From NCBI GenBank assembly GCA_041640075.1, contig JBEQAY010000001.1:1-14744 (forward strand): a stretch of 14,744 nucleotides of DNA. The letters are read 5' to 3'. The DNA is from Candidatus Nanohaloarchaea archaeon (GTDB taxonomy: Archaea; Nanohalarchaeota; Nanosalinia; Nanosalinales; Nanosalinaceae). This document shows, in pieces, positions 93 to 14,744 of the stretch. The position numbers and the translations under genes are program-made. Within the stretch, counting starts at the first letter, position 1, and every line of letters begins with the position of its first letter. The notes under the pieces were generated by a model that saw only the letters and a program-made list of their open reading frames with translations, did no database searches and was not told where the DNA came from.

Positions 93-108
93 AGGAAACT
101 TTTTTATT
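93..108 (+). promoter_or_regulatory. Putative BRE + TATA element for a leaderless or short-leader transcript of 131..847
   Basis: AGGAAACT followed by TTTTTATT. AGGAAACT ends 30 nt upstream of ATG 131, which fits archaeal promoter spacing. Confidence 0.5.
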
Positions 109-130
109 GGTTAGTAGTCACAAGAGGACT

Positions 131-847: not shown

Positions 848-1951
848 TCAACAGCTTCCAGACGCATCGGGCGCCTCCAAGTTAGTAATGACTATGAAAG
901 GATGGATTGTGTTTGCCTTTAGGCTTCCAGCAGCCTCTATATCAGGATTTCCAGGAAGCCTATCAAATTCAGCGCTGTAATACTGAGATCCTCTATCATT
1001 CCAATCATTTCCAGGGCCCTGTTCATTTATGTTTTTACCTACATTTATCTGTATATAACCTTCTGTTCCAGGACAAAGCTTCCATTCCTTTACATCACGA
1101 TCTCTCCAACCATGTCCATCACTGTAAGGAGGATTACCTATATCAGCAAAACCTTCAGCCGTAATGCTATCTTGTCTAGCAGCAGGATCCGCACCAATAA
1201 CGGTCAAAGTTCCTATAGGGCCCTCATCAGTATGGTGAGTGTAGGATTCGTCTGGCACCATACATTCGCCATCTAAAGGTCCGCTACCAAAATCATCCGG
1301 GTGTTCATCCATGCCAAGCCCCCTACGTCCTCCACCCGCTCCCGGGCCAGCGTGTAGGTATCTAATCACATTTGGTACAGTTTCATCTGTGACGTAAAAG
1401 GTGAAATCACCACTGGTTGAGCCTCCAGTGTGTTCATCGTATGCCACGCAAGGGCCTAATCTCACACCATCGGAACCGCTATTTTTTTCGGTAATCGTGA
1501 AGTCTCGTTTTGAATATTCTCCTTCCTGATCATTTATCCAGAAGTCATCTTCTCTGACAAACTCTTCAGCTTCCTCCCAGGCACCCTGTGACAAAGGTAG
1601 TTTGTTTTCAACTCCGTAGCAGTTGAATTCACTTTTTCCACTGTATGACTCGTTTAGTTCTTCAAAGTCATTATGTCTATTTGTATCATCTCTAACTTCT
1701 TCCCATGACGCCCAGTAGGTTGCTCCACCAACAGTTGTTCCTTTCTCGAATCCTCCGGCTTCAGGTGTGCATTGGTATCCTGTGTACGTTGCCCACATTA
1801 TGAACTGTGTCATTGCCTCTGTGTTGTTTATCTGTGCTCCGCGGGCGCCTGCGTTCTGTGCAGCGTCTACTGTCCCTAGCAGGAAGGCTGCTAGCGGGCC
1901 GGCGAATAAGAATACCAGTACTATTCCGAACATGACCTGTATAACGTTCAT
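848..1951 (-). CDS. Membrane-anchored extracellular protein, putative minor pilin or tip adhesin
   Basis: 367 aa. N-terminal hydrophobic helix (VIQVMFGIVLVFLFAGPLAAFLLG) is followed by an amphipathic helix and then a G/D/aromatic-rich domain with 6 Cys and N-glycosylation sequons (NNT, NES). It lies directly after a pilin-like gene (TAA-ATG) and downstream of the ATPase/platform pair. Confidence 0.65.
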   Translation of the reverse strand: MNVIQVMFGIVLVFLFAGPLAAFLLGTVDAAQNAGARGAQINNTEAMTQFIMWATYTGYQCTPEAGGFEKGTTVGGATYWASWEEVRDDTNRHNDFEELNESYSGKSEFNCYGVENKLPLSQGAWEEAEEFVREDDFWINDQEGEYSKRDFTITEKNSGSDGVRLGPCVAYDEHTGGSTSGDFTFYVTDETVPNVIRYLHAGPGAGGGRRGLGMDEHPDDFGSGPLDGECMVPDESYTHHTDEGPIGTLTVIGADPAARQDSITAEGFADIGNPPYSDGHGWRDRDVKEWKLCPGTEGYIQINVGKNINEQGPGNDWNDRGSQYYSAEFDRLPGNPDIEAAGSLKANTIHPFIVITNLEAPDASGSC

Positions 1952-2119
1952 TTATATCATACCTGCTGTAAGGCCGCTTAGTTGTGATAGCATTGCGTTT
2001 GCGATTTGTCCGCCTCCTATTATGTCTGTGGCGACTAGAAGTATTCCTGCTCCAAGCATCAGTGCGAGTAGGAGTATAGCTATCTCCCAGAACATCTGGC
2101 TGTTTCCTTTTCTTTTCAT
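1952..2119 (-). CDS. Small type IV pilin-like protein (55 aa) with class III-like signal peptide; not in ORF track
   Basis: Translated by hand: MKRKG|NSQMFWEIAILLLALMLGAGILLVATDIIGGGQIANAMLSQLSGLTAGMI*. It has a basic leader ending KG, then a ~20-aa hydrophobic helix. Glu is at +7 rather than the common +5. Its stop abuts the ATG of 848..1951. Confidence 0.75.
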   Translation of the reverse strand: MKRKGNSQMFWEIAILLLALMLGAGILLVATDIIGGGQIANAMLSQLSGLTAGMI

Positions 2120-2126
2120 AGTCGGG

Positions 2127-2213
2127 TCATATCACTTCTGCTGTCCAAATGTTGTACATCAGCCAGGCCATGCCTAGTCCTACAGCGACTGCAACTATCT
2201 CTTGGGTTTTCAC
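2127..2213 (-). CDS. 28-aa single-helix membrane micro-protein (putative); not in ORF track
   Basis: GTG start; MKTQEIVAVAVGLGMAWLMYNIWTAEVI*. It fills the gap between a TATA-like element (about 23 nt upstream) and the pilin-like gene (7-nt gap), and is almost entirely one hydrophobic helix. Confidence 0.5.
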   Translation of the reverse strand: MKTQEIVAVAVGLGMAWLMYNIWTAEVI

Positions 2214-2235
2214 GTTTTAGGGTTTCCTGTTCTTC

Positions 2236-2251
2236 GATAAAAAGCTTACCG
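2236..2251 (-). promoter_or_regulatory. Putative TATA-like promoter for the 2213->848 pilin-like gene run
   Basis: Minus strand reads GGTAAGCTTTTTATC, with the TTTTTAT ending 23 nt before GTG 2213. Confidence 0.4.
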
Positions 2252-2270
2252 GGTTTTTGTTCCTCTGAAA

Positions 2271-4445
2271 TTATACTTCCATTCCGGTGATTGCCCCTCC
2301 GAACATGACAGATACCAGCATCATTGTCACGGCATAGAGAATTACACCTATCATCATGACCTTTCCTATAAACGTGTTCTTGTAGGTGAGGTTTTCTCCA
2401 TGGACAATCTTCATATAGAAGGTTCCAAGTATGAACAGAAGCTGGATAAGGTATATCCCGACGACGAACTGAAGTAGCTCTGGAGGGATGGCCTCGTCCA
2501 GACCTTCCATCATTCCTCCAAGACCTCCGCCTCCAAGTCCTCCTGCACCCGCTGCGCCACCCGCTCCGTCTACCTCTGGAACCGATTGAGAGAGCTGATA
2601 CATGGCAGTTATAATCGTCTGGCTCATTCCTACCGCGACACCTGAGATAACGGGTGAAAGCATGTATGCCAGGAGCTGTATGGTGGTTGTCGACTCCTCC
2701 ATCAGGTCATTAAGCGTTTCCTCGGTCTTGTGGACGTCTTGAAGGTATCTAGATATGGTAAGCATGGTCTCAGCTGCCATGCCTGTCCCTTTCTTGGAGG
2801 ATTTCATTATAGCTGTCATAATCGTATCAATCATCTGGCTTGGGAAGTCACGCAGTGAACCGTACTTCTCGTCGAAAATAGCCTGTTCAAAAGTCATCCC
2901 CATCTTCTCAATATTTCTGTATGACTCCTGGAAGAGACTGGATATCTCAAGATCCTTGGTCGCTTCAGCAGCATCCTTCAATGCTATCTCGATAGGCGTA
3001 CCTCCTGAAACTTTGTTACCAAGCTCGAAAAGTGCATTAGGGAACTCAGACTCCATCTGTTCTATCCTGGACTCAGCTTCACGCCTTGATATAGTTCCAA
3101 GATACTTAGAAAGCCCTATACCAAGACCCAGCCCAACTATTATACTGACAGAACGTGTAAGCATAATAACAGGATTCAAACTTTCTTCTCCAGAGAGGAA
3201 TATGGTTGGCGTCGAAGCCGGGTCGACACTGGAAACCGGATATACCTCCGGAAATATCAGGTAACCGATCCACCCCCAGAGAGAAATCAGAATGAAGACT
3301 AAGGCGCCTAAAGGCCACGTAGGAATCCAGTGCGTGTCGCCGAATATATCCAGTTTGTACTTTCCTAGAGGAGGCATTGTATCATCGTTTACAGGCTGTG
3401 ACGAAACTGTAGGAGGTCTGGAGCTCAGTACTCTCTGCATGAAAACCCACAGGAATCCTGGAAGCATTATATTGAATACAATGAATAGATGCATCGGTGT
3501 AATCGCTCCACCCATGAATACAGAGATAAGCGGGAGCATGATCATGCCAAGTACTGGAAGCATAGCTCCCATAGCGTTTATAACCATTACAGGCGTCTTC
3601 AGTCCCTGTGCATAGTGCTTCATTTTCTCCTGAGTCCCATCCAGGATGTTATCTATGGAGTCCTGAAGCATGTCAGACCGGCGTCCATCATCTGATTCAT
3701 TCATTGCTGCCTTGATCAGGTTCAGAGACTCAAGGAAGTCCTTATTGAAATCCTTCCAGGTTTCAGTATAGTTTTCCAATGATTCCTCGATAGTATTGTA
3801 TTTACCAACCTCTACATCCCAAAGAACACCTTTGAGATCATGTGAAACCGGTCCCTGGAGGTTCAAAGCTGCAAACCTTACTGCGCCTTCAAGATTGGGC
3901 GACGAGCGCATGTATACGACCATATATAGTATCGCAAGAATCATCTCTCCTGAGCTCTCGATGACCTTGTTCTGGGCGGCAAACTTTGGTTTATAGAACA
4001 TATATGCGCCTGCACCGATAGGAGCTATGAGAGATATCAACATGAGAGAGGTAGGTATAAACGGTCCGAGAATCATGTTAAAAATGAAAGCAAAGGCCCA
4101 AATGAAGAAAGAGAAAACCCCAACACCTACAGCGCCTGAAAGTACCTGTCCAGGAGTCAAATTCCATCCAAGAAGATTTAAAGATGGGTTGAGCTGCTCT
4201 TGAATTGAATCGTCTGCTTCAAGACTAAATAAACCCGCCATCTTATAGCAGAGCTTTTCATAAGTATTTTGTTCCTGGGCTCGCTCTTCCTCCTCTTTAT
4301 ATTGTTTGTATTTACGTGAATAACCTCTCTTATTCGATCCTGTGTTGTACGGTGGACGCTGTATATCTCTGTCTAGATTATTAACTATTTCATTGATCTT
4401 CTCCTCTTTCGCTTCCCTCCTTTTCTCTTCGTCAGACCTTGACAC
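2271..4445 (-). CDS. Type IV pilus / T2SS-F family membrane platform protein (TadC/PilC/ArlJ-like, two F domains)
   Basis: 724 aa, polytopic. Two cytoplasmic F-type domains are visible (ILAILYMVVYMRSSPNLEGAVRFAA and EFPNALFELGNKVSGGTPIEIALKDAA), each followed by TM helices. It is adjacent to the ATPase. GTG start with AGGTG RBS 6 nt upstream. Confidence 0.88.
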   Translation of the reverse strand: MSRSDEEKRREAKEEKINEIVNNLDRDIQRPPYNTGSNKRGYSRKYKQYKEEEERAQEQNTYEKLCYKMAGLFSLEADDSIQEQLNPSLNLLGWNLTPGQVLSGAVGVGVFSFFIWAFAFIFNMILGPFIPTSLMLISLIAPIGAGAYMFYKPKFAAQNKVIESSGEMILAILYMVVYMRSSPNLEGAVRFAALNLQGPVSHDLKGVLWDVEVGKYNTIEESLENYTETWKDFNKDFLESLNLIKAAMNESDDGRRSDMLQDSIDNILDGTQEKMKHYAQGLKTPVMVINAMGAMLPVLGMIMLPLISVFMGGAITPMHLFIVFNIMLPGFLWVFMQRVLSSRPPTVSSQPVNDDTMPPLGKYKLDIFGDTHWIPTWPLGALVFILISLWGWIGYLIFPEVYPVSSVDPASTPTIFLSGEESLNPVIMLTRSVSIIVGLGLGIGLSKYLGTISRREAESRIEQMESEFPNALFELGNKVSGGTPIEIALKDAAEATKDLEISSLFQESYRNIEKMGMTFEQAIFDEKYGSLRDFPSQMIDTIMTAIMKSSKKGTGMAAETMLTISRYLQDVHKTEETLNDLMEESTTTIQLLAYMLSPVISGVAVGMSQTIITAMYQLSQSVPEVDGAGGAAGAGGLGGGGLGGMMEGLDEAIPPELLQFVVGIYLIQLLFILGTFYMKIVHGENLTYKNTFIGKVMMIGVILYAVTMMLVSVMFGGAITGMEV

Positions 4446-4458
4446 ATTTCACACCTGT

Positions 4459-6726
4459 CTAGTCCACCTGTCTGTCCAGCCATTCCTTCCACCTGGCATA
4501 GATTCTTTCAGTATCCTGCTCACCGTACTCCTCTGTCACCCGGTTTGAAAGAATGTGATACCTCTGGTTACATTTTGACACGAATTCGGCTTCCAGAAGC
4601 TCGTCATTACCTGTCTCCTCAGCTTTCTCAACTATCGCCTCTTTAATCTTCTTCCTGAGCTGGATATCATCCCATACAGCCTCCCAATTATTCTTGTAAC
4701 CCTTGATATTATCTGCAATCCTGCTGATAATCTCTGACTCTCCATTGAGGAGAGTATCAGTTGGCACAAGTTCGTCCTTGTTGCTGTCGTACCGCATAAG
4801 TTCAACAAAAGCGTCCTCCTTCAGTGGATCTTCCTCCCACTCCTTTCTGACCTCAGTGATGCCCGTTACACGTCTGTACGTTTCGAGTCCATCAGGGCTT
4901 CTGATCTTGTTGACTGAGACGATGATGTCGGTAGCCTTGAAGGAAGTTCTCGGCACGTTCAGGTCGTTCACCACTCTATCGAATACGGAGTATGCATCCT
5001 CTCCGTGGATTGTTCCTCCAACAAAGTTCGCTACAGCCCCAACACGCATAGCTTCATACAGCGCCTGGGCTTCATCAGATCTTACCTCTCCAATAATCAG
5101 TGCTGAGTCTCCAAGGCGCAGAGAGGTCCTGATAGCATTGTCTGCGCTCATCTCGCTTTCTACCTGAGTAATTACGGAACGGGATTTCATCCTCTCGATA
5201 TTGTAGCCTAGATCCTTCATCTGAGGTATAGGAAGCTCTAATGTGTCCTCTACAGTGACAATCCTGTGGTTTTTCATGATCTCAAGCATCGCTGCCGACA
5301 TCAGGGATGTTTTTCCTGCTCCTCGTGTTCCTGCAAAGAGATGTGACCTGTTCCCATCCACCAGGAAAGATAGGACGGCTGCACCGATGCTGTTGATAGT
5401 ATTGTTTTTGATGAAAAGTGGTAGTGTCCAAATACGGGATCTGTGGCGCCTTAATGTGAATGCTAGGCCTTCTGGGCTTAGATTTTCTTGTATTACTGCT
5501 ACACGTGCTTTTCCACCTTTAACCTCTGTTTCTGTGTCCAGTACCGGGTTTGCTTCGTCCAGAGGTCTCCCTGACTGTATCCTGAAACGTGTAGCCCATG
5601 ATTCTGCCTCTTCCTTTGTAGGTATCAAATTGGTTTCACAGTCCTCAAAGTCCTGATGAGTTAGGTATATAGGTGATTCCCCAATAGGAGAGTTGATGTA
5701 GATATCCTCCACCTTTGGGTCTGATATAAGTAGTTCTAGAACTCCTAGACCTGAGGTATAGCGGTTCAGTATCCCTGTAAGTGCTTCAAGTTCGTCAAGT
5801 GACAGATCCAGGCCCATCTGGTTGGCGATGTCACGTAGCATATCACGGCCGATGTTCTGGAAGACCTCCTGCATCCTGTCAGGCTGGGCGAACTCTCCCT
5901 CCTCTGGTTTGTGTGAGGCCATGAATCTTCTTGCAGCGTCCAGAAGTTTGTACTTCTCCTCCGGTAGATTGAATTCTGGCGGGTTGACATGGTAAACCGG
6001 TCTGGTCTGATCCGGTACCTCGTAAATCGAGACCTCAACATCTCCCTGAACATCGTATCTCGCCTTCTCCTCACCTCTCTCTGGAGGCAGGGACATGTAC
6101 TTTGTAAGCATAAAGTTCGGCCTGACCAGTGGGTGGAAGAATTCCCTGTAGATCTCCCTGTCGCCGACATGGTATCCGGTCAGGTAGTCCTGTGCCTTCT
6201 GGATCATCTCGCATTCTTCTAAGGTATTCATCACAGGGTTGATGACATCCTGGATGAAGTACTTGAGACAGCGCTTCTGCTGCGGGTAAGCGTGCTCCTG
6301 ATCCTGCTTCATATGTCTCTTTTTTCTTCTCAATTCGACGTACGCTCCTACAGGATCTCTTCTTAACTGGTCGAAAACTGTTTTCTGGACCTCAGGCAGG
6401 TGTTTCTCATAGAGCTGGCTGCATTTATCACGCTCTATGTCCTGGGATAGATACCCTTGAGATGAAATACTTCTTATAGCCTCTGCTATCTCTCTTAAAA
6501 GCCTTATCTGATCTTCTTCATATTCGTATTCTCTTGATTCTGATAATACTACGTTTCCTGCTTCCGGTATCTCCTGTAGAATGTTTATAACACGCGACAT
6601 CACTTCAGGGTAGTCCTCTATGGATGCTCCGTAGATCGAGCCGAGCATATTGATTTCGACGGTGCCTGTGTCGTCGTCGTATTCGTACTCGAATACGTCC
6701 TTGTTTTTTACGTCCATACCTAACAT
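4459..6726 (-). CDS. Type II/IV secretion system ATPase (VirB11/TadA/PilB/ArlI superfamily), type IV filament assembly motor
   Basis: 755 aa. Walker A GTRGAGKT, Asp box VEDTLEL, Walker B LIIGEVR, His box GTIHG, and typical N2-domain motifs (LLISDPKVEDIYINSP, TLRRH). The start may be ATG 6726 or ATG 6717. Confidence 0.95.
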   Translation of the reverse strand: MLGMDVKNKDVFEYEYDDDTGTVEINMLGSIYGASIEDYPEVMSRVINILQEIPEAGNVVLSESREYEYEEDQIRLLREIAEAIRSISSQGYLSQDIERDKCSQLYEKHLPEVQKTVFDQLRRDPVGAYVELRRKKRHMKQDQEHAYPQQKRCLKYFIQDVINPVMNTLEECEMIQKAQDYLTGYHVGDREIYREFFHPLVRPNFMLTKYMSLPPERGEEKARYDVQGDVEVSIYEVPDQTRPVYHVNPPEFNLPEEKYKLLDAARRFMASHKPEEGEFAQPDRMQEVFQNIGRDMLRDIANQMGLDLSLDELEALTGILNRYTSGLGVLELLISDPKVEDIYINSPIGESPIYLTHQDFEDCETNLIPTKEEAESWATRFRIQSGRPLDEANPVLDTETEVKGGKARVAVIQENLSPEGLAFTLRRHRSRIWTLPLFIKNNTINSIGAAVLSFLVDGNRSHLFAGTRGAGKTSLMSAAMLEIMKNHRIVTVEDTLELPIPQMKDLGYNIERMKSRSVITQVESEMSADNAIRTSLRLGDSALIIGEVRSDEAQALYEAMRVGAVANFVGGTIHGEDAYSVFDRVVNDLNVPRTSFKATDIIVSVNKIRSPDGLETYRRVTGITEVRKEWEEDPLKEDAFVELMRYDSNKDELVPTDTLLNGESEIISRIADNIKGYKNNWEAVWDDIQLRKKIKEAIVEKAEETGNDELLEAEFVSKCNQRYHILSNRVTEEYGEQDTERIYARWKEWLDRQVD

Positions 6727-6760
6727 TGTTATTCGAGCATTGGTAAAAGGTTAGGTAGAT
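6727..6760. promoter_or_regulatory. 34-bp divergent intergenic region (putative overlapping bidirectional promoter)
   Basis: Only 34 nt separate the ATPase ATG (minus strand) from ATG 6761 (plus strand). Minus strand has CCTTTTACC; plus strand has an AGGTAG RBS-like element before ATG 6761. Confidence 0.4.
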
Positions 6761-7204
6761 ATGCCGCAACAGCAGAACATCATAAACCAGGTTGTTGACC
6801 GGGTTAACGACTTCAACCGTAGAGTCCGAGATCTGGAAGAGAAGATCAGAAACCTCTCTGCAAGAGTCGACGCTTTGGACGATACAGTGATGAACAAGAC
6901 GGAGCAGAACAGTGATGATATCCAGAGCCTGGAGAACGACATGGAGGAGATCAGTGACCGGATGGCAAACATAGAGGTTGACATCAAGAACATCAACAGG
7001 GAGAAAAGGAAGTTTGTGACCTCCCAGGAACTGGATGAGATCGAGAACTACATGGATCTCATGAACCCTATCCACTCCTCATTTATGACCGAAAAGGAGT
7101 TCGAGGAGAAAATGGATGAGGAAGGATATATTTCCGAGGAAAAAGTGGAGAAGATGATTGAGGAGAAACTTGAGCAGGTTGCAGGAACTGACAATCAAGG
7201 TTAA
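6761..7204 (+). CDS. Acidic coiled-coil protein (147 aa), predicted trimeric alpha/beta coiled coil
   Basis: Continuous heptads over about aa 8-84. RhxxhE trimerisation motifs RVRDLE and RMANIE. Three (F/Y)-h-(T/S) motifs: FVTSQEL, FMTEKEF, YISEEKV. No TM segment. Confidence 0.85.
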   Translation: MPQQQNIINQVVDRVNDFNRRVRDLEEKIRNLSARVDALDDTVMNKTEQNSDDIQSLENDMEEISDRMANIEVDIKNINREKRKFVTSQELDEIENYMDLMNPIHSSFMTEKEFEEKMDEEGYISEEKVEKMIEEKLEQVAGTDNQG

Positions 7205-7248
7205 ATACCCGGAGAACATAAAATTTTGATAGCTAGAAGATAAGAGGA
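7196..7248 (+). promoter_or_regulatory. Putative promoter (CAAGG-TTAAATA) and RBS (AAGAGGA) for 7255..8112
   Basis: TTAAATA at 7201-7207 is preceded by purine-rich CAAGG. AAGAGGA at 7242-7248 is 6 nt before ATG 7255. Confidence 0.45.
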
Positions 7249-7254
7249 TTTGAA

Positions 7255-8112
7255 ATGGATTTCAAGCTCTTTGGACGTCTGAAAGACGACGATGGAGGAG
7301 GCGGCCAGAACAACTCCGCTGATAAACCAAGTCAGAGACAGCAACAGAATCAAGGAATGAATCAGATGGGAGGAGGCGGAGACGTAGGCAGAACAGTCAG
7401 CTCCATGTTCGACCAGGGATATTCAGAAGAGGAAATCCGAAACGAACTGCAGGGACAGTACAGTTCAGAACAGATAAACAGAGCGATAAACAACGCAGTC
7501 ACATCCTCCGCAACAAGCGGAGACCAGGATCAAGGAGGACCACAACCAATGAGCCCCTACCAAGAAGAAGACGATACACCAGATCCCTCAAACCAGGGAC
7601 AGAACCAGCAGAATCAAACACAACCGCAGCAGACCCAGCAACAGATATCCAACCAGGGGCAGGGCCAACAGCAGCAGGCACTGATGCAGGGATCAGGGGG
7701 GAACCAGGTTGACCCTCAGGTAGAGGAGCTTATCGAAACAATAATTTCAGAGAACTTCCAGAAAGTGGAACAGGAGTTCCAGAACGTTTACAGCGAACTT
7801 GATGTTATAGCAGAGGAACTTGAAGAACTGGAGGAAAGAGTACATGATCTTGAAGTACGGGATGACGAAGATCAGAAGGAATTCGTGGAAAAGATGGATG
7901 AGGTCGAGCAACATATTGACTCCTACGAATCAAGAATCGGAGGACTGGAAAAGGCATTCCAGCAGATGCTTCCATCACTCGTAGACAACATCAGAGATCT
8001 AACTGGTCTAGTCCAGGAGATCAAGCAGGAGCAAGGTATAGAAACAGACTCAAGTGTCTCAAGTCAAGAAGTCAAGGATGTAGATATGGATGCGTTCAGC
8101 AAGCAGGACTAA
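7255..8112 (+). CDS. Acidic protein with small helical domain, Q/N/G-rich disordered linkers and C-terminal coiled coil (285 aa)
   Basis: N-terminal MDFKLFGRLK, Q-rich linkers and a helical motif (VSSMFDQGYSEEEIRNELQGQYSSEQINRAI). Heptads over about aa 155-258 contain the RhxxhE motifs RVHDLE and RIGGLE. Confidence 0.85.
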   Translation: MDFKLFGRLKDDDGGGGQNNSADKPSQRQQQNQGMNQMGGGGDVGRTVSSMFDQGYSEEEIRNELQGQYSSEQINRAINNAVTSSATSGDQDQGGPQPMSPYQEEDDTPDPSNQGQNQQNQTQPQQTQQQISNQGQGQQQQALMQGSGGNQVDPQVEELIETIISENFQKVEQEFQNVYSELDVIAEELEELEERVHDLEVRDDEDQKEFVEKMDEVEQHIDSYESRIGGLEKAFQQMLPSLVDNIRDLTGLVQEIKQEQGIETDSSVSSQEVKDVDMDAFSKQD

Positions 8113-8168
8113 AAAATATATTACTCCTTCTTCAACTTCCTCAATTTCCAATTAATTTCTGAAATAAC
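8110..8168. terminator. Convergent intergenic region, probable T-rich archaeal terminator(s)
   Basis: Lies between convergent stops 8112 and 8168. The plus strand is pyrimidine-rich, and an A6 run at 8111-8116 reads T6 on the minus strand. Confidence 0.3.
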
Positions 8169-8659
8169 TATGACTTGGTTGTCTGCTGGACAATCAAGAG
8201 GAAGAACACAAGAATTAGAATAGGCATTATCACATCGTTGAAAACACTCTGCGTCTCCCCAATCAGATTGTCAATATCAATGTATGTAACTACAACTGTG
8301 ACAAATGATACAACAAATATAGTTACCGCAAAGTATCTAGGAGTACCGCCCTCAGCATACTCGTTGATATCGTAACCAGCCATCGCCACCAGAACCATGA
8401 AACCAAGCAGGCCAAAAAGACCGAAAGTAATCGCGGCCGCAAAGTTAGTGAATATACCTGCTGGAGCAAACTGGTTTATGCCAATAATAGAGAGAAAAGC
8501 CATTGCCAACGCTATAGAGCCGTTTACCTGTGTCTCTCCACTTACAACTTCATATTTCTCTAGAAGACCGTAGCTCACTGAAAGAACAAGAAGCCATGGG
8601 AGAAATAGGCGGAAGCCCATTTCCACCATGGTTTCAACGATGATCTCGAAGGCGGCCAT
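8168..8659 (-). CDS. Polytopic membrane protein (163 aa, ~5 TM), paralogue of 8673..9305
   Basis: Hydrophobic throughout. Motif GFRLFLPWLLVLSVSYGLLEK...QVNGSIALAMAFL. GGCGTGAT RBS-like sequence upstream. Confidence 0.85.
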   Translation of the reverse strand: MAAFEIIVETMVEMGFRLFLPWLLVLSVSYGLLEKYEVVSGETQVNGSIALAMAFLSIIGINQFAPAGIFTNFAAAITFGLFGLLGFMVLVAMAGYDINEYAEGGTPRYFAVTIFVVSFVTVVVTYIDIDNLIGETQSVFNDVIMPILILVFFLLIVQQTTKS

Positions 8660-8672
8660 CCAATATCACGCC

Positions 8673-9305
8673 TTATCCGTCATCATCACTGTCTCCGCCT
8701 AGCTCCTGAGTAAACAGCTTCTCTAGGAGGCTGTCCTCATCTCCATTTTCTGATGGATCTTTCATGGACCACCAGAGCAGCCCCAGTATCAGGATTATGA
8801 ATATCACTCCCGTATTTAGCGACCAGTTCAGGAATCCAAATACTGCGTTGAGTATCTGGTTCTGACTTTGGACTGGTAGGAGTGATGCGTTTAGTCCTCC
8901 TGATACTACGAATAGTGCTGCTATGAACAGTGCGGCGATGCCGCCCCAGATTCCGGTTCCCATGTTTTCCAGTTCGATTCCGAACCATCCAAGCATGACC
9001 AGCAAGCCCAGGAATCCTACCATCAGCACAGTAAATCTTCCGAGGTACTGTGTGAAGAACTGCTGGTACGCTGGATTCATCACTATAAACCTGGATGTGA
9101 AGAAGGCGAAGGCTATAGACAGAATAGCAGAGAACTGTTTCGCTCGCCCTTTATCGTCAAGTATCTGCTCCGAAACCTTCCTCAGCATGAAGAAGAATAT
9201 CGCATAGGTTATTACGAAAGGTAGCAGCCCTGTGAAAAACCCTATGTTCTCTAAGGACTGCATTAGTTGTCCGAATGAACCTGCGCCTTCAAACAGACTC
9301 GCCAT
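8673..9305 (-). CDS. Polytopic membrane protein (210 aa, ~5 TM) with acidic tail
   Basis: Motif GFFTGLLPFVITYAIFFFMLRK...KQFSAILSIAFAFF. GGTGA RBS upstream; 4-nt gap from the previous gene. Confidence 0.85.
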   Translation of the reverse strand: MASLFEGAGSFGQLMQSLENIGFFTGLLPFVITYAIFFFMLRKVSEQILDDKGRAKQFSAILSIAFAFFTSRFIVMNPAYQQFFTQYLGRFTVLMVGFLGLLVMLGWFGIELENMGTGIWGGIAALFIAALFVVSGGLNASLLPVQSQNQILNAVFGFLNWSLNTGVIFIILILGLLWWSMKDPSENGDEDSLLEKLFTQELGGDSDDDG

Positions 9306-9309
9306 TCAG

Positions 9310-9564
9310 TTATTCACCGTCCACATCCCATTTCTCGTATACAGCGTTCTTGATCAACCATAGCTCTCGGCCTATGATCATGAGAGCCAGCATCGTGACC
9401 CATGGCTCTATTGTGTTGCCAAGATCGAGGAAGCTTACAGAGCCTGGTGAAACGAATAGGACATAGATTGAGACAAAGATCGCCCCAAACGAGAGAACTG
9501 CAATCAATACTTCATCGATCCAGTTCTCGACCTCGTAGAGGTAGCGGTGTAGCTTCTTATCCAT
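9310..9564 (-). CDS. Small 2-TM membrane protein (84 aa)
   Basis: Two hydrophobic helices (VLIAVLSFGAIFVSIYVLFV; PWVTMLALMIIGRELWLI). Its ATG overlaps the upstream stop (TAATG), with GGAGGT RBS upstream. Confidence 0.8.
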   Translation of the reverse strand: MDKKLHRYLYEVENWIDEVLIAVLSFGAIFVSIYVLFVSPGSVSFLDLGNTIEPWVTMLALMIIGRELWLIKNAVYEKWDVDGE

Positions 9565-9701
9565 TAGAAATTACCTCCCATTCCGCCACCGCCAAACTTG
9601 CTTTGGATTTTAGCTCCAATATATCCAATCGCCAGCCCGGCGATAAGAACTGTTGGATTATTCATTGCTTGGGTCATTATAGCACTTGCGCTGAAAGCCA
9701 T
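9564..9701 (-). CDS. 45-aa single-TM protein with glycine-zipper-like helix and Gly/Phe tail; not in ORF track
   Basis: Translated by hand: MAFSASAIMTQAMNNPTVLIAGLAIGYIGAKIQSKFGGGGMGGNF*. GAGGTA RBS lies 8 nt upstream, there is a strong TATA further upstream, and it has a TAATG overlap with the next gene. Confidence 0.8.
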   Translation of the reverse strand: MAFSASAIMTQAMNNPTVLIAGLAIGYIGAKIQSKFGGGGMGGNF

Positions 9702-9740
9702 ATTTTTAATACCTCTATACCATTACGTTGTCTTTCCTCC

Positions 9741-9756
9741 TTTATATAATTAAAAC
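9741..9756 (-). promoter_or_regulatory. Strong TATA box for the 9701->8168 membrane-protein operon
   Basis: Minus strand reads GTTTTAATTATATAAA about 40-55 nt upstream of ATG 9701, leaving room for a short leader that contains the GAGGTA RBS. Confidence 0.6.
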
Positions 9757-9780
9757 CCGAACGTCACAATGCCTAAGAGT

Positions 9781-12168
9781 CTATTCGAACATATCCATGC
9801 CATTAACCAAATCAAGCTCCTCAGAGATATCTTGATAGATCAATTCTTCCTTTTCGTTGATGTCTTTTATTTTAGCGTGAATTTCCTCAAGCATTTCTGT
9901 AGCATCGCTCTTTTCAGGTAGCTCTCTCTGGTGCTCATGCAGTATCTCAAGAAGTTGCTGCACTCTCCGATCTTCCTTGCTCTCGACCTTTGCAACCTGT
10001 CCAAGAAGCTCTGTCTCGTGTCTATCTTCTTTAGATACCTTCTCAAGCAGATCTTCTGCTGCTTCCAGCATCTCCTTCCCCTTTCCTTCAGAGAATTCCT
10101 GCATGTAATTATAGACTTCTTCTTCATCAAGCATACTCATCTCCATCCTGAATTCCTTCATAGCTCCCTCTCTGTATTCCTCAGGGATATCATCCAGATC
10201 ATTTTTCAGTTGCTCAATCCTTCCATGAATCCTCTGCCAGCCGTCAGCCATTCGCTCTACTTTCTCGTAAACTTCTCTGAAATCTTCTACTGCCTGGAAG
10301 AAGTCTTTCTCTTCACCATCCTCCTTCTCAACCTGTCTTGAAATAGAGTCATCTATCTCCCCGAGCCTGCCCAGTATCTGATGAACTACCTCATCGAGAG
10401 TTCCATCCAATCTATGTTTCTCCCCGTCATGGGTAAATTCTGTGTTAACTTCAGGCCTACCCCACTCAAAGTCTCCATCAAGATCAGATTCCACGGCTTG
10501 AAGTGCCTTACCCACATACTCTAGGGTACTCTCTATCTCCTCATCTTTCTTTATATCATCTTTTTTGTTATCTTTCAGCTCGTCAAGTTCCATTCCTGTC
10601 TGTTCCAGTTCTTTCTTAAGCTGCTCGAACTCCTTGGATAGATTATTCTTGTCCAGAGAGCTGAAATGATCCTCCAGAATGTGATCTATGTCTGTTACAG
10701 CACGATCAACCTTGCGAGTCTTTTCACGTTCTATATCACTTACATAGCCGTACTCTTCATCCTCCATCTGCTCAAGTTTGCTCTCAAGATGTTCAGCACT
10801 CTCCACTTTCTCCAAGGTGTTCTTTATCCTTCTATCCATTATCAGAATATTTTCGATATCGGTTGCCTCCAGTCTCTCTATCTCTTCTGAGGTTCTTACC
10901 ATCTTACTGTATTCTTCGGTTACACTTTCAACCATTTGCTTCTCTCTTCCATCCGGAAAAGCATCACCTAACCGTTTAAGGAATTCGTGAGGTCTTACTG
11001 AGGCTCCGTGCTCATGTCCTTCAATTCTTGAACGAAGCTGCTCATCTTCCCCCGCAACATGGTCAACAACACTGAAGCTCTGCTGCATGATGTTGTGGGC
11101 TCTTTCAAAGGCCTCAATCATCCAGGCCTCCTGTCTTAAAATCTGCTCTGAATCTGATTTAAGTTCGAAAGTCTCCTCCTCTTCAGACTCAACCTTTTGA
11201 AGTATAGCATCCATATTCTGTTCTATTATATCGTTATCAGCGTCACTACTTTTTATTTCCGAAGCTATATCCTCTGCTATCTGCTCCCTGTCCTCAAGCT
11301 GCTGTATATTAAGTCTTACCTTCATAAGCTGCAGGAAAATATTCTCATTACGTTCTACTAGACCTGCAAGGTCTTCAAGAGTATCTCTTTTACCTTCAGC
11401 CTCTTCAGAGGCATTGGATGCAAGAGGTTTGAGTACCTTTGTATTGATTTTCTGAAGATCTTCAAGTGCATGAGCTAAGCCATATCTGTTGCTCCGGGAA
11501 TATGTACTGCTACTGTATCCTATACCCCAGTCATCGATGGCCTTGGAAGCGGACTCAAAATCCAGTCCCTGCATCCCCGAGTCAAGCCCCGACTCCTGAA
11601 CTCCATATGGATCATCTCCAATAATAATTTTCTCGACATCAGTACGGCGCAAATCCGCGAGATTATCTGGCAGTTGGCGGTGAAGATTATCTATAAACGT
11701 CAGAACCCTGTTTAAACGGTGAGTCCAGTCTCCTATAACCTCTTCTTCCCCAGACTCAACATCCAGTTCTCTTTCAAGCTCATCAACAGCCCGCTGCATA
11801 TCACTCCTGTTCCTCTCCATGATGTCTCTCAGAGAACCTCCATACCTGGTAGACGACATTAGTTTTTCAACATCCTTGATAAGGACCTGAATACCTCCTG
11901 TTTCTCCACCTCTGTATTCATTGATTGTCTCCTCTCCAATAGAATGGTCGGACATCTGATCAAGCCATTCACCTTCAGCTTCTTCAGCATTCTGGGGGAA
12001 ACTTACCTCATGATTTGATATATCTAGCACCAGCTCAGGTTTTGGTTTAAGATCTCCTGACTCTATACGCTCTTGGATCTCACTTGAACCACCAATTGAT
12101 GTAAAACCGGATTTAACATCCGAAAGCTTATCCATCAAACCTTTATCGCCGTCTTCTTGATCAGCCAT
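9781..12168 (-). CDS. Large acidic soluble coiled-coil protein (795 aa), function unknown
   Basis: E/D/K/L-rich heptad pattern over most of its length. No TM segment, signal peptide or Walker A motif. It shares aligned blocks with 12209..13957. Confidence 0.88.
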   Translation of the reverse strand: MADQEDGDKGLMDKLSDVKSGFTSIGGSSEIQERIESGDLKPKPELVLDISNHEVSFPQNAEEAEGEWLDQMSDHSIGEETINEYRGGETGGIQVLIKDVEKLMSSTRYGGSLRDIMERNRSDMQRAVDELERELDVESGEEEVIGDWTHRLNRVLTFIDNLHRQLPDNLADLRRTDVEKIIIGDDPYGVQESGLDSGMQGLDFESASKAIDDWGIGYSSSTYSRSNRYGLAHALEDLQKINTKVLKPLASNASEEAEGKRDTLEDLAGLVERNENIFLQLMKVRLNIQQLEDREQIAEDIASEIKSSDADNDIIEQNMDAILQKVESEEEETFELKSDSEQILRQEAWMIEAFERAHNIMQQSFSVVDHVAGEDEQLRSRIEGHEHGASVRPHEFLKRLGDAFPDGREKQMVESVTEEYSKMVRTSEEIERLEATDIENILIMDRRIKNTLEKVESAEHLESKLEQMEDEEYGYVSDIEREKTRKVDRAVTDIDHILEDHFSSLDKNNLSKEFEQLKKELEQTGMELDELKDNKKDDIKKDEEIESTLEYVGKALQAVESDLDGDFEWGRPEVNTEFTHDGEKHRLDGTLDEVVHQILGRLGEIDDSISRQVEKEDGEEKDFFQAVEDFREVYEKVERMADGWQRIHGRIEQLKNDLDDIPEEYREGAMKEFRMEMSMLDEEEVYNYMQEFSEGKGKEMLEAAEDLLEKVSKEDRHETELLGQVAKVESKEDRRVQQLLEILHEHQRELPEKSDATEMLEEIHAKIKDINEKEELIYQDISEELDLVNGMDMFE

Positions 12169-12180
12169 GGTAAATACTGT

Positions 12181-12206
12181 TTATAACTTATTGAAAAGAG
12201 TTTCCT
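12181..12206 (-). promoter_or_regulatory. Putative promoter of 9781..12168
   Basis: Minus strand reads AGGAAACTCTTTTCAATAAGTTATAA. AGGAAACT ends exactly 30 nt before the ATG, as it does upstream of ATG 131. Confidence 0.4.
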
Positions 12207-12208
12207 AA

Positions 12209-13957
12209 TCAGGTATATCTCGTATCTCCTTCACCCAGCCAGTCTCGGAGATCTTCACCTATCTCACTAGCTATCTTGTTTTGACCTTCATTCTCAGCAG
12301 CCTCACCAAGAATACTTTCCATCCTTCCGTACACTTCCCTTTCCTCATCTTCAAACTGATTAATCATTGTCTCCATCTCATCATGCAACGTAGAAATCTT
12401 GTCTATAATATCACTCATGATCGCGGCTCCATCTTCAAGGATGTCATTATCTATGGCGGGAGGAGTATCAGCCTGCGAATTTCCAAAGGCATCTCTAAAT
12501 CTAATAACTGTATCTTCCAACCCGGACTCCCACTTCAATTCCTCCTTTAGTTGCTCTATTTCTTTACCATCGTATTCCAAAAATCTTGAAGTCGTTCCCA
12601 AAACAGATTCTATTTTTGACTCAATCTCTGACTCATAGTCCTCCAGCTGGCTTATTATATCTTCAACCTTCTTTTCCTCACTTATCATGCTCTCGGATGC
12701 GTTATGAAGCTTCTCAAGTTTCCCTTTCTCCTCTATGGCTTCCATCTTTTCAGAATCTTCCTCAAGTTCTTCAAGAATATTAATCATCTTTCTAATCAAA
12801 GACTGAGCTCTTATAGCTTTCTCAACCACATTTTCAAAGTCCTTTGTTGCCTCAGCAAGATCACCAGATTCATCTTGATAATCTTTTTCTGCAATTCTCA
12901 AATCCTCCTGAATCTTCTGAATATCCTCTTCAATACCACCTAAACCATACTCCGAAGGTAGATCCACCTCATCGATATCAGCTTCAAAATTAGGATCGTT
13001 GATATCCAAACTGCCTTCAATAAATCTCTTTACTTGATTTTTACTGTAGGTGCCAGAACCGGTGTTTATAATCTCGCCACGACTAGGATGATCAACTATC
13101 CACGTAGTAACTTCACTACCTCCATTGGCAGCTGTCTCAAGGTAAAGTCTCACCCTCTTAATCCTGTTCCCAATGTCTGAAAGTCTTGCTTCTTCATCAC
13201 TCTCGTCTCTAACAGCATTAGCATAATCTCTGTGAGCTTCCTCAAGTCTGTCTCCCATGGCTTCAAAATCTTCTCCTAGATCGGGTGCTACCGCTTTCAT
13301 CAACTTAACTGTATTTTCAAACTCTTTCTCAGCATCCTGTAGATTTCCTTCCTCTGCATCTTTCTCTCCGCCCCGCATGCTTTCATAGGCCTGTCCTATT
13401 CTATCAGCAGCTCCAGAAAGCGCTTGATCCGCACCTACCTGTTTACCAGCCTCTTCTACCCCTTTTGCACCTGCTCTTAATCCAAGAGCGCCAGAAAAAG
13501 GGATGCTGCCCAAAGCTGCGCCTCCACCACCTAAGATAACGAAAGCAGCCGCAGCCACAAAGCCAAGGCCTAGTGCCAAAGTAATTAGTGATTGAAAACC
13601 ATTAACTATACCAGCGCTACCTGCTCCGAACGTACCAGCAATAGTAAACAATACAGATAATACCGCCACTAGATTTCTTCCATCACTCCCTCCAAACAAG
13701 TCTCTGTCGGATATATAAGATGAGCGCTCAGAAGCGGAACGGAACAGTATCTTGAAAATCATATACACAGAAAGATTCATGAAGGCAAAAGTTGCCAAGA
13801 AAGCCATCAGATTCGTCATGTTACCTTCTATCCCTAGAACCTGGGTAATCAGAGGTATAACACCTACAAATCCTTGACTAGAATCAGTAATTGCCGCTAC
13901 CGAGAAAGGGGTTACTGCAACCGCTGACAACAATAACCTGACCAATCTCCTTGGCAT
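12209..13957 (-). CDS. Membrane-anchored acidic coiled-coil protein (582 aa)
   Basis: Signal-peptide-like N-terminus (MPRRLVRLLLSAVAVTPFSVAA), about 3-4 hydrophobic helices in aa 30-160, a G/A-rich segment, then about 400 aa of acidic heptad-rich sequence. An AT-rich TATTTAAG element ends 24 nt upstream of the ATG. Confidence 0.88.
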   Translation of the reverse strand: MPRRLVRLLLSAVAVTPFSVAAITDSSQGFVGVIPLITQVLGIEGNMTNLMAFLATFAFMNLSVYMIFKILFRSASERSSYISDRDLFGGSDGRNLVAVLSVLFTIAGTFGAGSAGIVNGFQSLITLALGLGFVAAAAFVILGGGGAALGSIPFSGALGLRAGAKGVEEAGKQVGADQALSGAADRIGQAYESMRGGEKDAEEGNLQDAEKEFENTVKLMKAVAPDLGEDFEAMGDRLEEAHRDYANAVRDESDEEARLSDIGNRIKRVRLYLETAANGGSEVTTWIVDHPSRGEIINTGSGTYSKNQVKRFIEGSLDINDPNFEADIDEVDLPSEYGLGGIEEDIQKIQEDLRIAEKDYQDESGDLAEATKDFENVVEKAIRAQSLIRKMINILEELEEDSEKMEAIEEKGKLEKLHNASESMISEEKKVEDIISQLEDYESEIESKIESVLGTTSRFLEYDGKEIEQLKEELKWESGLEDTVIRFRDAFGNSQADTPPAIDNDILEDGAAIMSDIIDKISTLHDEMETMINQFEDEEREVYGRMESILGEAAENEGQNKIASEIGEDLRDWLGEGDTRYT

Positions 13958-14008
13958 ATACCTGTAATTAACTTTTAATGACTTAAATATTGAAGGTTTC
14001 CATGACTT

Positions 14009-14455
14009 CTAACTGAAGGCCTGCCAGAGAACCCAGAGAAATGCCGCCACTATAGCAAAGAAAAACACGTAACTAATTGTGCCGAACAGAACAGCGATGT
14101 AGTCCTGGAAAACTTGGAAATACGGACTTGGAACAATCATCCCTGTAACTGCCAGAGACATCAGCATCGAGTACTTTCTGACACGCTTCTTTTCCGCACT
14201 CCTTGAACCCGCGACAAGCAGTCCGTCATCGTCTGCATAAGAGAATGAAAGTGCTTTCTCAAACCCTCTCTGAAAGATGATTGCTATCAGAAGAAACGGA
14301 GCAACAAAATTTGTCAGAGCAGTCCTTGGATCCTCCAGCGAGTCATAGAAACCTTCGGTGGCCGAGTAGCTGAAGAGGTCTCCATGAAAACCTGAACCCA
14401 GGCTTGCAAAAATAAGTACAAGGAAGAAAATCGAGAGCAGTCTTTTACTCTCCAA
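14009..14455 (-). CDS. Membrane protein (~148 aa) with signal-peptide-like N-terminus and the paralogous membrane-hairpin domain
   Basis: The ORF track starts at 14587, but that overlaps the upstream gene by 143 nt. In-frame TTG 14455 (MESKRLLSIFFLVLIFASLGSG...) has a GGTGA RBS 8 nt upstream and overlaps the upstream gene by only 11 nt. Motif LTNFVAPFLLIAIIFQRGFEK...RKYSMLMSLAVTGMIV. Confidence 0.75.
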   Translation of the reverse strand: MESKRLLSIFFLVLIFASLGSGFHGDLFSYSATEGFYDSLEDPRTALTNFVAPFLLIAIIFQRGFEKALSFSYADDDGLLVAGSRSAEKKRVRKYSMLMSLAVTGMIVPSPYFQVFQDYIAVLFGTISYVFFFAIVAAFLWVLWQAFS

Positions 14456-14744
14456 AGTCCATGTCACCGCCGCCGAAGTCATCGTCTCCGCCACCAGCGT
14501 CACCGCCGAAGTCTCCTCCGCCGCCTCCACCGGAGCCAAAGCCGCCTTCACGGACTTTTTCGATATAAGCCGGGATAACCTCGTCAATCATGAAACCTGC
14601 GAAGAGACCCGTACCCGCAATAACAGCAAACCTGGCCATCGTCTCAGATAGCCCAACGTTACTGGCAACAACACTTGTTAAACCGATAGAAGCAAGATAA
14701 CCTATCACCGCCGCCAGCGGAAACGCCAGATACTTCCACGGATC
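14445..14744 (-). CDS. Small membrane protein with Gly/Asp/Phe-rich C-terminal tail (5' end truncated by window edge)
   Basis: The frame is open to the window end: DPWKYLAFPLAAVIGYLASIGLTSVVASNVGLSETMARFAVIAGTGLFAGFMIDEVIPAYIEKVRE followed by the tail GGFGSGGGGGDFGGDAGGGDDDFGGGDMDFGE*. Two TM helices are visible. Confidence 0.8.
   Translation of the reverse strand, partial: DPWKYLAFPLAAVIGYLASIGLTSVVASNVGLSETMARFAVIAGTGLFAGFMIDEVIPAYIEKVREGGFGSGGGGGGDFGGDAGGGDDDFGGGDMDFGE
14448..14548 (-). repeat. Imperfect coding repeat (GGC/GGA-rich; GACTT(C/T)GG x3) encoding DFG(G) units
   Basis: The plus strand shows CACCGCCGCCGAAGTC, CACCGCCGAAGTC and CCAAAGTC copies, which translate to GDFGG, DDFGG and MDFGE. 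Confidence 0.55.

Follow-up and report, generated by a model that had tools for sequence, protein, structure and literature searches.

A conserved type IV pilus-like locus of a Nanosalina-like nanohaloarchaeon and companion genes that may form a cytoplasm-side scaffold of its motor

We analyzed the first 14,744 bases of contig C1 (JBEQAY010000001.1), called the window below, from a 0.98-Mb nanohaloarchaeal genome with 46% G+C that is 89% complete. From position 848 onward the window encodes the ATPase and membrane platform of a type IV filament system together with pilin-like genes and a set of companion proteins. It is almost certainly a locus of the type published as Locus 2 of cluster-2 DPANN archaea (Hamm et al. 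2024, PMC11291902). On balance, we favor a reading in which the window holds most of that locus and the companions form a membrane-anchored scaffold on the cytoplasmic side of the motor, not fibers outside the cell. A scan of one genome per species identified Candidatus Nanosalina sp. VS9-1 as the nearest named record by ATPase (90% identical); by this match the source organism is a Nanosalina-like nanohaloarchaeon, in agreement with the preliminary description of this DNA, which had called it a DPANN genome from the letters alone.

Results

Gene content of the window

The genes from position 848 to the window end are as follows (aa, amino acids; TM, transmembrane).

g02, 848-1951, minus strand: 367 aa, acidic, single N-terminal hydrophobic helix
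g03, 1952-2119, minus strand: 55 aa, small prepilin-like protein
28-aa candidate open reading frame (ORF), 2127-2213, minus strand: resembles a single hydrophobic helix, judged by eye
g04, 2271-4445, minus strand: 724 aa, two-domain PilC/TadC/FlaJ-type membrane platform
g05, 4459-6726, minus strand: 755 aa, secretion-superfamily ATPase with an extra N-terminal region of ~290 residues
g06, 6761-7204, plus strand: 147 aa, soluble acidic coiled-coil protein, divergently oriented to the ATPase
g07, 7255-8112, plus strand: 285 aa, soluble, C-terminal coiled coil
g08, 8168-8659, minus strand: 163 aa, five-helix membrane protein
g09, 8673-9305, minus strand: 210 aa, five-helix membrane protein with an acidic tail
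g10, 9310-9564, minus strand: 84 aa, small membrane protein
g11, 9564-9701, minus strand: 45 aa, small and weakly hydrophobic, with a Gly-rich tail in relatives
g12, 9781-12168, minus strand: 795 aa, soluble acidic helical protein
g13, 12209-13957, minus strand: 582 aa, signal peptide followed by three TM helices, then ~400 residues of helical tail
g14, 14009-14587 as the longest ORF (192 aa) or 14009-14482 from the start shared by relatives (~157 aa), minus strand: membrane module without a tail
g15, 14445-14744, minus strand: protein with two TM helices and a Gly/Asp-rich tail, truncated by the window end

The preliminary description had placed ORFs of these sizes at these positions and had sorted each into one of three kinds, pilus-assembly components, long acidic coiled coils and small membrane proteins; our analysis bears this out, with helical acidic proteins as the second kind. 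It had also noted that no metabolic or informational gene is present; among the 15 proteins scanned, none reached the curated cut-off of such a family. We found ten hydrophobic segments in g04, five each in g08 and g09, four in g13, three in g14, two in g15 and one each in g02, g03 and g10. The description "long acidic coiled coil" for g06, g07, g12 and g13 stood as regards acidity (Asp plus Glu fraction 0.20-0.26, isoelectric point 4.05-4.44), but needs qualifying as regards fold, since the coiled coil of g07 is confined to its last ~130 residues and g13 is not a plain coiled coil. Genes g08 to g15 all lie on the same strand with short gaps between them. A scan of the window for bacterial-type promoters and terminators gave 5 matches where 5.6 were expected, which is chance level for a model that is not meaningful for an archaeon.

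The motor

The ATPase g05 matched Pfam T2SSE at 53.1 bits (cut-off 24.9), and its relatives in the PDB were afGspE (2OAP, E value 6e-27), FlaI (6e-21) and CpaF (8e-18), with all alignments beginning at residue ~290. The P-loop residues G465, G470, K471 and S473, as well as E492/D493, are invariant in 17 orthologues, and g05 is thus a PilB/FlaI/TadA-type ATPase with intact nucleotide-binding motifs. The protein shares 71-93% identity with its counterparts in 23 nanohaloarchaeal loci and 53% with that in L018; over its whole length, mean column identity is 77% among the 17 orthologues, and identity to non-halophilic forms is 53%. Conservation of the N-terminal 290 residues extends to 257 relatives; of the 120 listed, those that carry a name are nanohaloarchaeal. 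Its neighbor g04 matched Pfam T2SSF at 27 bits (cut-off 25.2) and contains two T2SSF-like repeats (3537-3932 and 2643-3023). It adjoins the ATPase in 21 of 24 related loci by tblastn, as befits a polytopic PilC/TadC/FlaJ platform. Complex prediction with the ATPase (1-754) and the N-terminal part of g07 (1-115) returned an ipSAE of 0.00 in two runs without controls, which speaks neither for nor against binding.

Some relatives carry a longer form of this ATPase. ORFs of 1118-1943 aa occur in Nanohalobium-like and some other relatives (L020:6632-12463, L021:9611-13363, L022-L026 and L050:12490-16830), where ~495 aa are inserted directly after the Walker B "VED". Since the insertion has LAGLIDADG-type motifs and a His-Asn end, we identify it as an intein; precomputed Pfam domains on the insertion-bearing ATPases are LAGLIDADG_3, Intein_splicing and Hint. 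The window ATPase has no intein. The genome also encodes a third T2SSE-family ATPase ORF (C38:4481-4867, 610 aa, 32.9 bits).

Companion genes in nanohaloarchaeal loci

To follow the neighbors of the motor, we used the 24 related loci obtained from the ATPase scan, nearly all of which are labeled Nanohaloarchaea (one is a metagenome-assembled genome labeled Colwellia polaris), and compared the window proteins with them by tblastn. The ATPase g05 and g06 were found in all 24 loci, g07 in 22, and g04, g08, g09 and g10 in 21 each, followed by g15 (15/24), g14 (14/24), g11 (6/24), g13 (4/24), g02 (3/24) and g03 (1/24); g12 and g01, the gene that precedes the cluster in the window, had no match in any. 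Iterated profiles, whose counts include the window's own locus, raised g11 to 22 loci, g13 to 21 and g02 to 20. Loci without the distal genes are on contigs that end earlier. Across the phylum, g07 is present in 59 of 70 genomes and in 27 of the 28 that are at least 90% complete. The preliminary description had proposed that its reading would fall if the genes from 6761 on did not travel with this ATPase clade; g06 to g10 flank the ATPase in 21-24 of the 24 loci, and the reading withstands this check. Judged by gene order, then, five further gene families are kept beside the motor: g06 and g07, the paralogues g08 and g09, and the small membrane proteins g10, g11 and g15.

Neither g06 nor g07 has a hydrophobic segment (maximum 19-residue hydropathy of -0.19 and 0.47, respectively), and by hydropathy g06, g07 and g12 all lack an export signal. 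The only Pfam matches of g06 are sub-threshold coiled-coil models, namely DUF7310 in 20 of 23 family members and TPR_MLP1_2 in 11 of 23. We dropped the name DUF7310, whose best score in scanning the genome was 19.5 bits (cut-off 40) and which matched 12 of 14 control genomes, as well as PilB3_N, an Atlas lead at 0.79 that had no match in the genome scan. In the alignment of the g07 family, a conserved motif at the N terminus precedes a small helical domain, which a Q-rich linker joins to the terminal coiled coil. The sole above-threshold name that we met for this family was a V-SNARE N-terminal family on a g07-like protein (L039:10607-11338, minus strand; 31.4 bits, cut-off 25.9), which we took as a probable coiled-coil artifact.

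The two five-helix membrane proteins aligned with one another by hhalign at 98.4% probability (E value 5.1e-15, 163 columns); on this comparison g08 and g09 are paralogues. An AlphaFold2 model of g09 had a predicted local distance difference test (pLDDT) score of 71. With this model, Foldseek returned nothing at E<=0.001, and the best VIA-align match (Z 7.2) covered a helical hairpin of 63-69 residues, below the chance level for helical bundles. The small protein g11 reaches a maximum 19-residue hydropathy of 1.23.

Companion genes beyond the phylum

With a profile built from twelve non-halophilic g09-like proteins, we retrieved 23 metagenome loci. In 14 of these, the immediate neighbor of the g09-like gene is a g07-like gene on the other strand; two of the 23 are too short to judge. 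Where there is room, a separate g06-like gene comes next in 7 of 8 loci, and a long-form ATPase orthologue after it in 5 of 6. The order and orientation of g09-like gene, g07, g06 and ATPase are the same as in the window, and in one locus (L031) the platform and a row of pilin-like genes follow on the other side. Models of g10, g11, g14 and g15 had no match on any of the 23 loci. In database searches, the g07 profile recovered 697 representative clusters at E<=1e-10, with the nearest Atlas clusters in Nanobdellota families, and the g09 family has 167 relatives, of which all 120 listed are without a Pfam domain and some are named Aenigmatarchaeota or Nanoarchaeota. For the g14 family we found 53 relatives, and every one that carries a name is nanohaloarchaeal. 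Given the block shared across lineages and the null results for g10, g11, g14 and g15, we regard g06, g07 and g08/g09 as DPANN-wide companions and g10 to g16 as nanohaloarchaeal additions (g16 is the next gene past the window). The preliminary description had called the whole apparatus lineage-specific, which fits g10, g11, g14 and g15 but not g06, g07 and g08/g09.

A module-and-tail family at the distal end

Members of the g13 family are only 10-27% identical to the window copy and share architecture more than sequence: a signal peptide that ends in an Ala-rich motif of cleavage type is followed by a short segment, by three TM helices and by ~400 helical residues. The iterated profile found 38 such ORFs in its 21 loci, with one to four per locus, and also matched the g16 counterpart. 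By hhalign, with which composition can push up the scores of TM and coiled-coil segments, g14 aligned with the first part of the g13 membrane module (94% probability, E value 1.4e-7, 66 columns). Similarly, g12 aligned with its positional counterparts in L003 and L004 (22-23% identity), and together these three aligned with the g13 family tail (96.7% probability, E value 3.3e-10, 138 columns). According to these alignments, g12, g13 and g14 are one family, in which g13 combines module and tail, whereas g14 consists of the module only and g12 of the tail only. Taken together with the g08/g09 pair, this bears out in substance the "paralogous membrane complex" of the preliminary description. ATG17-like and ZorA names for g13 were dropped, both being far below their cut-offs. 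A MotA/ExbB/TolQ-like module, which has the same topology, was unsupported, with no such Pfam match in 15 g14-family and 17 g13-family members.

Loop charges suggest where the tail lies. In the 8 of 17 g13-family members for which three helices after the signal were detected, we counted 0-1 Lys/Arg in the last 15 residues before the first helix, 3-5 in the first loop of ~27 residues and 0-1 in the short second loop. For the window copy the counts were 0, 5 and 0. The g14 family showed the same pattern, with 2-9 Lys/Arg in this loop of the 10 members for which at least 4 hydrophobic segments were detected. From this pattern and the positive-inside rule, the g13-family tail is predicted to be cytoplasmic. 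As for g12, it has no hydrophobic segment (maximum 19-residue hydropathy 0.29).

Divergence of motor, companions and pilin-like genes

When we compared the window with the congeneric locus L003, identity over aligned residues was highest for the ATPase g05 (90%), followed by g15 (84%), g10 (79%), g06 (78%), the platform g04 (74%), g07 (72%), g08 (71%) and g11 (70%). Intermediate values were found for g09 (50%), g14 (48%) and g02 (41%), and the lowest for g16 (37%), g03 (36%), g13 (31%) and g12 (23%).

The preliminary description had spoken of pilin-like genes. This stands for g03, whose start has basic residues, a Gly and a hydrophobic run (residues 13-31) like archaeal class III signal peptides when read by eye, but is less clear for g02, which has only a hydrophobic N terminus (residues 6-24) and lacks the basic-Gly motif; g02 is a candidate pilin-like or secreted subunit. 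In relatives, ~10 ORFs downstream of the platform have a basic-Gly-hydrophobic start (by eye, from the N termini in L017), some of them with large heads. Further pilin-like genes, an Alba gene and a phosphoglycerate-mutase-like gene in L003 (L003:15976-22234) had no tblastn match anywhere in our assembly. The cluster is probably cut by the contig start, with the rest unassembled.

A closely related pair of loci was compared in the same way. In L007 and L008, the ATPase is 99% identical, with a ratio of nonsynonymous to synonymous divergence (omega) of 0.01, and all accessory genes are under purifying selection (omega 0.04-0.14; 0.04-0.10 for g06 to g09). The two g13-like genes have omega values of 0.09 and 0.06 at 82-91% identity. 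The pilin-like genes after the platform (L007:14745-21385 vs L008:14748-21450) are 47-65% identical, every one differing by 35-53%, whereas the Alba gene, which follows the main pilin-like block, shows 100% identity and a synonymous divergence of 0.03. Pilins at 47-65% beside an identical Alba gene and accessory genes under purifying selection suggest a mosaic or replaced pilin cassette, one that strains would have exchanged or that would have been driven to diverge between them. Of the genes in this pair, the pilins diverge fastest, as expected of exposed subunits, and they are probably exposed. By the same comparisons, the helical proteins drift fast but without the pilin-type divergence pattern.

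Surroundings of the cluster

Ahead of g02, the window contains g01 (107-847, plus strand), which encodes a very acidic, lipoprotein-like protein of 246 aa (Asp plus Glu fraction 0.26). This protein has a twin-arginine-like motif, and its Ala-rich hydrophobic run is followed by a Cys. With no relative by tblastn in the 24 related loci, g01 is outside the conserved cluster as defined by gene order. At the other end, g15 is complete in contig C1 (~100 aa). The window end abuts a run of N in C1 (~14745-14860), and ~130 bases on both sides of it encode the identical N-terminal part of g15, from which we conclude that it is an unmerged scaffold join. The next gene, g16 (C1:15034-17457), has one N-terminal TM helix. 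Beyond it, C1:17500-30500 holds ~13 kb extra relative to L017, between the g16-type and diphthine-synthase-like genes, and includes a gene for a 2023-aa protein with a signal peptide.

Relation to known systems

Hamm et al. (2024, Nat Commun, PMC11291902) describe two conserved type IV pilus-like loci with coiled-coil proteins (CCPs) in cluster-2 DPANN, Locus 1 with FlaF, PilA, GroEL, GatE and Mpg, and Locus 2 with a CCP, CpaF and TadC. In their account, the CCPs resemble reovirus sigma-1 in predicted structure and were detected by proteomics. On contig C10 of our genome lie genes for GatE, a chaperonin (thermosome), a 222-aa coiled-coil protein, pilin-like proteins of FlaF/PilA type and a 569-aa ATPase, a set that fits Locus 1, and hence the window corresponds to Locus 2. 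The window itself has a CpaF-like ATPase, a TadC-like platform and a coiled-coil gene, and the cluster-2 DPANN genome around it thus holds both loci. The sub-threshold TPR_MLP1_2 matches of the g06 family fit the "nucleopore domain" description in that paper, and g06 is probably its CCP. Both occur in Nanohaloarchaeota and combine an ATPase and a platform with genes for coiled-coil proteins. The main text of Hamm et al. names CpaF, TadC and CCPs only, and the five-helix paralogues, the small membrane proteins and the module-plus-tail family do not figure in it; its supplements may list neighbors. The caution of the preliminary description, that coiled-coil loci of this kind might already have been noted, was well placed.

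Two other published systems bear comparison. Reva et al. (2023, PMC10266531) report a filament ATPase and platform within operons of up to 22 hypothetical genes in cultivated nanohaloarchaea (SVXNc_1003-31 and BNXNv_1067-93). These operons, which may be equivalent to the window, are likened there to euryarchaeal archaellum operons, whereas here the searches for FlaI, archaellin and FlaC given below were negative. In the survey by Makarova, Koonin and Albers (2016, PMC4858521), haloarchaeal type IV pilus loci contain ftsZ-like genes and an intracellular coiled-coil protein, and its subclade 4F pilus systems share with the window an ATPase, a TadC-like platform, many pilins and an intracellular coiled-coil protein. 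This likeness is one of gene content, and neither DUF7310 nor PilB3_N had a significant match in our genome.

The window does not encode an archaellum, as the preliminary description had already held. Against the FlaI/ArlI equivalog (NCBIfam FlaI, cut-off 550), g05 scored 150.5 bits and the C10 ATPase, at 403.5 bits, scored higher. The archaellin family PF01917 had no match at E<=0.01 in this 89%-complete genome, although the model matched 4 archaeal control genomes. For ArlH, the only match was the P-loop of the ATPase at 17.7 bits (cut-off 215). FlaC_arch reached 25.4 bits in g07 (cut-off 27.8) and was sub-threshold in 18 of 22 family members; since another ORF outscored g07 in the genome scan (22.5 vs 17.7 bits), we read this as coiled-coil likeness and not as membership.

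Coiled-coil scaffolds around filament motors are known from elsewhere. In the archaellum, ArlX (Crenarchaeota) and ArlC/D/E (Euryarchaeota) are cytoplasmic, partly membrane-anchored coiled-coil motor scaffolds beside a FlaI-type ATPase, and in bacteria the envelope is connected to the cytoplasmic ATPase by PilM/N/O and GspL/M, small paralogous membrane proteins that contain coiled-coil segments. The window resembles the former in having coiled-coil proteins encoded beside a FlaI-type ATPase, with no homology found to its proteins. As for the latter, no sequence or fold similarity was found, and g08 and g09 are five-helix and not bitopic.

Discussion

Our reading of the window as most of a Locus 2 with a scaffold on the cytoplasmic side can be put in terms of a mechanism. 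The ATPase hexamer would drive the platform to assemble the pilins into a surface filament, which would be used for host contact. The helical tails of g12 and g13, along with g06 and g07, would lie on the cytoplasmic side, and g08 to g11 and g13 to g15 would hold them beneath the membrane, so as to form a scaffold round the motor. Such a scaffold would be analogous, not homologous, to the ArlX/ArlCDE rings or to PilM/N/O. The parts of this reading differ in strength. That g06 to g09 are true partners of the motor is quite probable given their synteny. A cytoplasmic scaffold role for the g12/g13 family is a tentative proposal, to which we would give somewhat less than even odds. The most specific version, in which the DPANN-wide coiled-coil pair, the five-helix paralogues and the nanohaloarchaeal module-and-tail family together build a membrane-anchored cage round the filament motor on its cytoplasmic side, is speculative and, as a whole, more doubtful than any of its parts.

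Several observations weigh against this reading. The partnership of the accessory genes with the motor is read from gene order alone. Seven of the 23 non-halophilic loci have room for g07, g06 and the ATPase but lack them, and contain g09-like genes, most often two or three; a further locus (L043) keeps the g09-like and g07-like genes but not the ATPase. In L039:5477-9762, L034:5274-9918 and L036:0-4338, a canonical ftsZ (Tubulin 1.4e-45, plus FtsZ_C) is found two to three unknown genes away from a trio of paralogous g09-like membrane genes. L034 and L036 are motor-less and among the seven, and L039 bears the motor. The best genome match to a prepilin peptidase (A24; C22:10201-10551) scored 19.6 bits, below the cut-off of 26.5, in a genome that is 89% complete. 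For the topology of the g13 family we relied on a crude hydropathy window and on the positive-inside rule, although the proteome is acidic, and 8 of 17 members gave the full pattern. The all-helical AlphaFold2 model of g13 has a pLDDT of 57, falling to 30-50 in the membrane part. The iterated profiles of the g02, g11 and g13 families may have drifted, and composition may have raised the hhalign scores. Lastly, the identities of 23-37% for g12, g13 and g16 between congeners, vs 90% for the ATPase, would also fit exposed or dispensable proteins.

The alternative that fares best holds that only g06 to g09 belong to the machine and that g12 to g16, perhaps with g10 and g11, are fast-evolving, lineage-specific neighbors with an unrelated role. 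The absence of g10, g11, g14 and g15 matches from the non-halophilic loci, the nanohaloarchaeal labels of the g14 relatives and the lack of any tblastn match for g12 in the 24 loci are all as this would have it. However, in most nanohaloarchaeal loci that are long enough, these genes keep their place between g11 and the locus edge, with the g13-family profile in 21 loci and g15 in 15 of 24. Moreover, g15 and g10 are among the genes best conserved relative to L003 (84 and 79%), and the distal genes share the strand of g08 to g11 at short gaps. We therefore consider this alternative unlikely but not negligible.

Less likely again is that the long coiled-coil proteins (g12, g13 and perhaps g06 and g07) are extracellular attachment fibers displayed or exported by the machine. 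This was suggested by Hamm et al. (2024, PMC11291902), whose sigma-1 resemblance and proteomic detection of CCPs speak for it, and the preliminary description had likewise written of trimeric coiled-coil fibers. Fast divergence relative to L003 (23% for g12 and 31% for g13, against 90% for the ATPase) and a copy number of one to four per locus would also suit surface fibers. Our results point the other way on location: g06, g07 and g12 have neither a signal peptide nor a TM segment, and the loop charges of the g13 family place its tail inside the cell. In the L007/L008 pair, the g13-like genes are under purifying selection while the pilins are replaced. Foldseek with the g13 model, which is poor, retrieved only designed or TPR-like helical repeats at TM-scores of at most 0.13 and no sigma-1. 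Thus, the fibers of the preliminary description are not supported, and trimerization is not evident from the sequence.

Type IV filament systems include secretion and uptake machines, and the locus could accordingly encode a pseudopilus-type secretion or DNA-uptake device and not an adhesive pilus. Xie et al. (2022, PMC9563170) speculate on DNA import via pili in a related order. We judge such a device improbable here: family scans of the window proteins found nothing that resembles a DNA receptor or channel, and the ~10 pilin-like genes of relatives, some with large heads, fit adhesive filaments better. The weakest alternative, that the five-helix paralogues with g06 and g07 serve cell division or membrane remodeling and adjoin the ATPase without a role in the pilus machine, can point to the three loci near ftsZ, the seven loci without g07, g06 and ATPase, and L043, but is very unlikely in view of the order of g09-like gene, g07, g06 and ATPase being kept from halophilic to non-halophilic lineages, and an ftsZ neighbor is no argument against a pilus role because ftsZ-like genes are noted in haloarchaeal pilus loci (Makarova et al. 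2016, PMC4858521).

We return, then, to a Locus 2 motor with companions on the cytoplasmic side. Since this kind of locus is already published, the window itself adds little, and what remains of interest is the companion set and the prediction that it sits on the cytoplasmic side. Our contribution is a parts list that separates DPANN-wide from nanohaloarchaeal accessory genes and names the paralogues. It predicts that the big helical proteins are inside the cell and that the pilins are the fastest-diverging, probably exposed parts.

Direct contact with a host cell is, to our knowledge, a requirement of every cultivated DPANN archaeon, and we know of no contact machinery described for them. The locus is nearly universal in the phylum, with g07 in 27 of 28 high-quality genomes, and its ATPase, which carries inteins in some relatives, is among the most conserved genes seen. 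This near-universality and the strong conservation of the ATPase make the locus a prime candidate for the contact organelle. If the cage exists, it would be a third independently evolved scaffold of an archaeal filament motor, after ArlX and ArlCDE, and it could hold the motor at a narrow site of host contact or help to open a cytoplasmic bridge.

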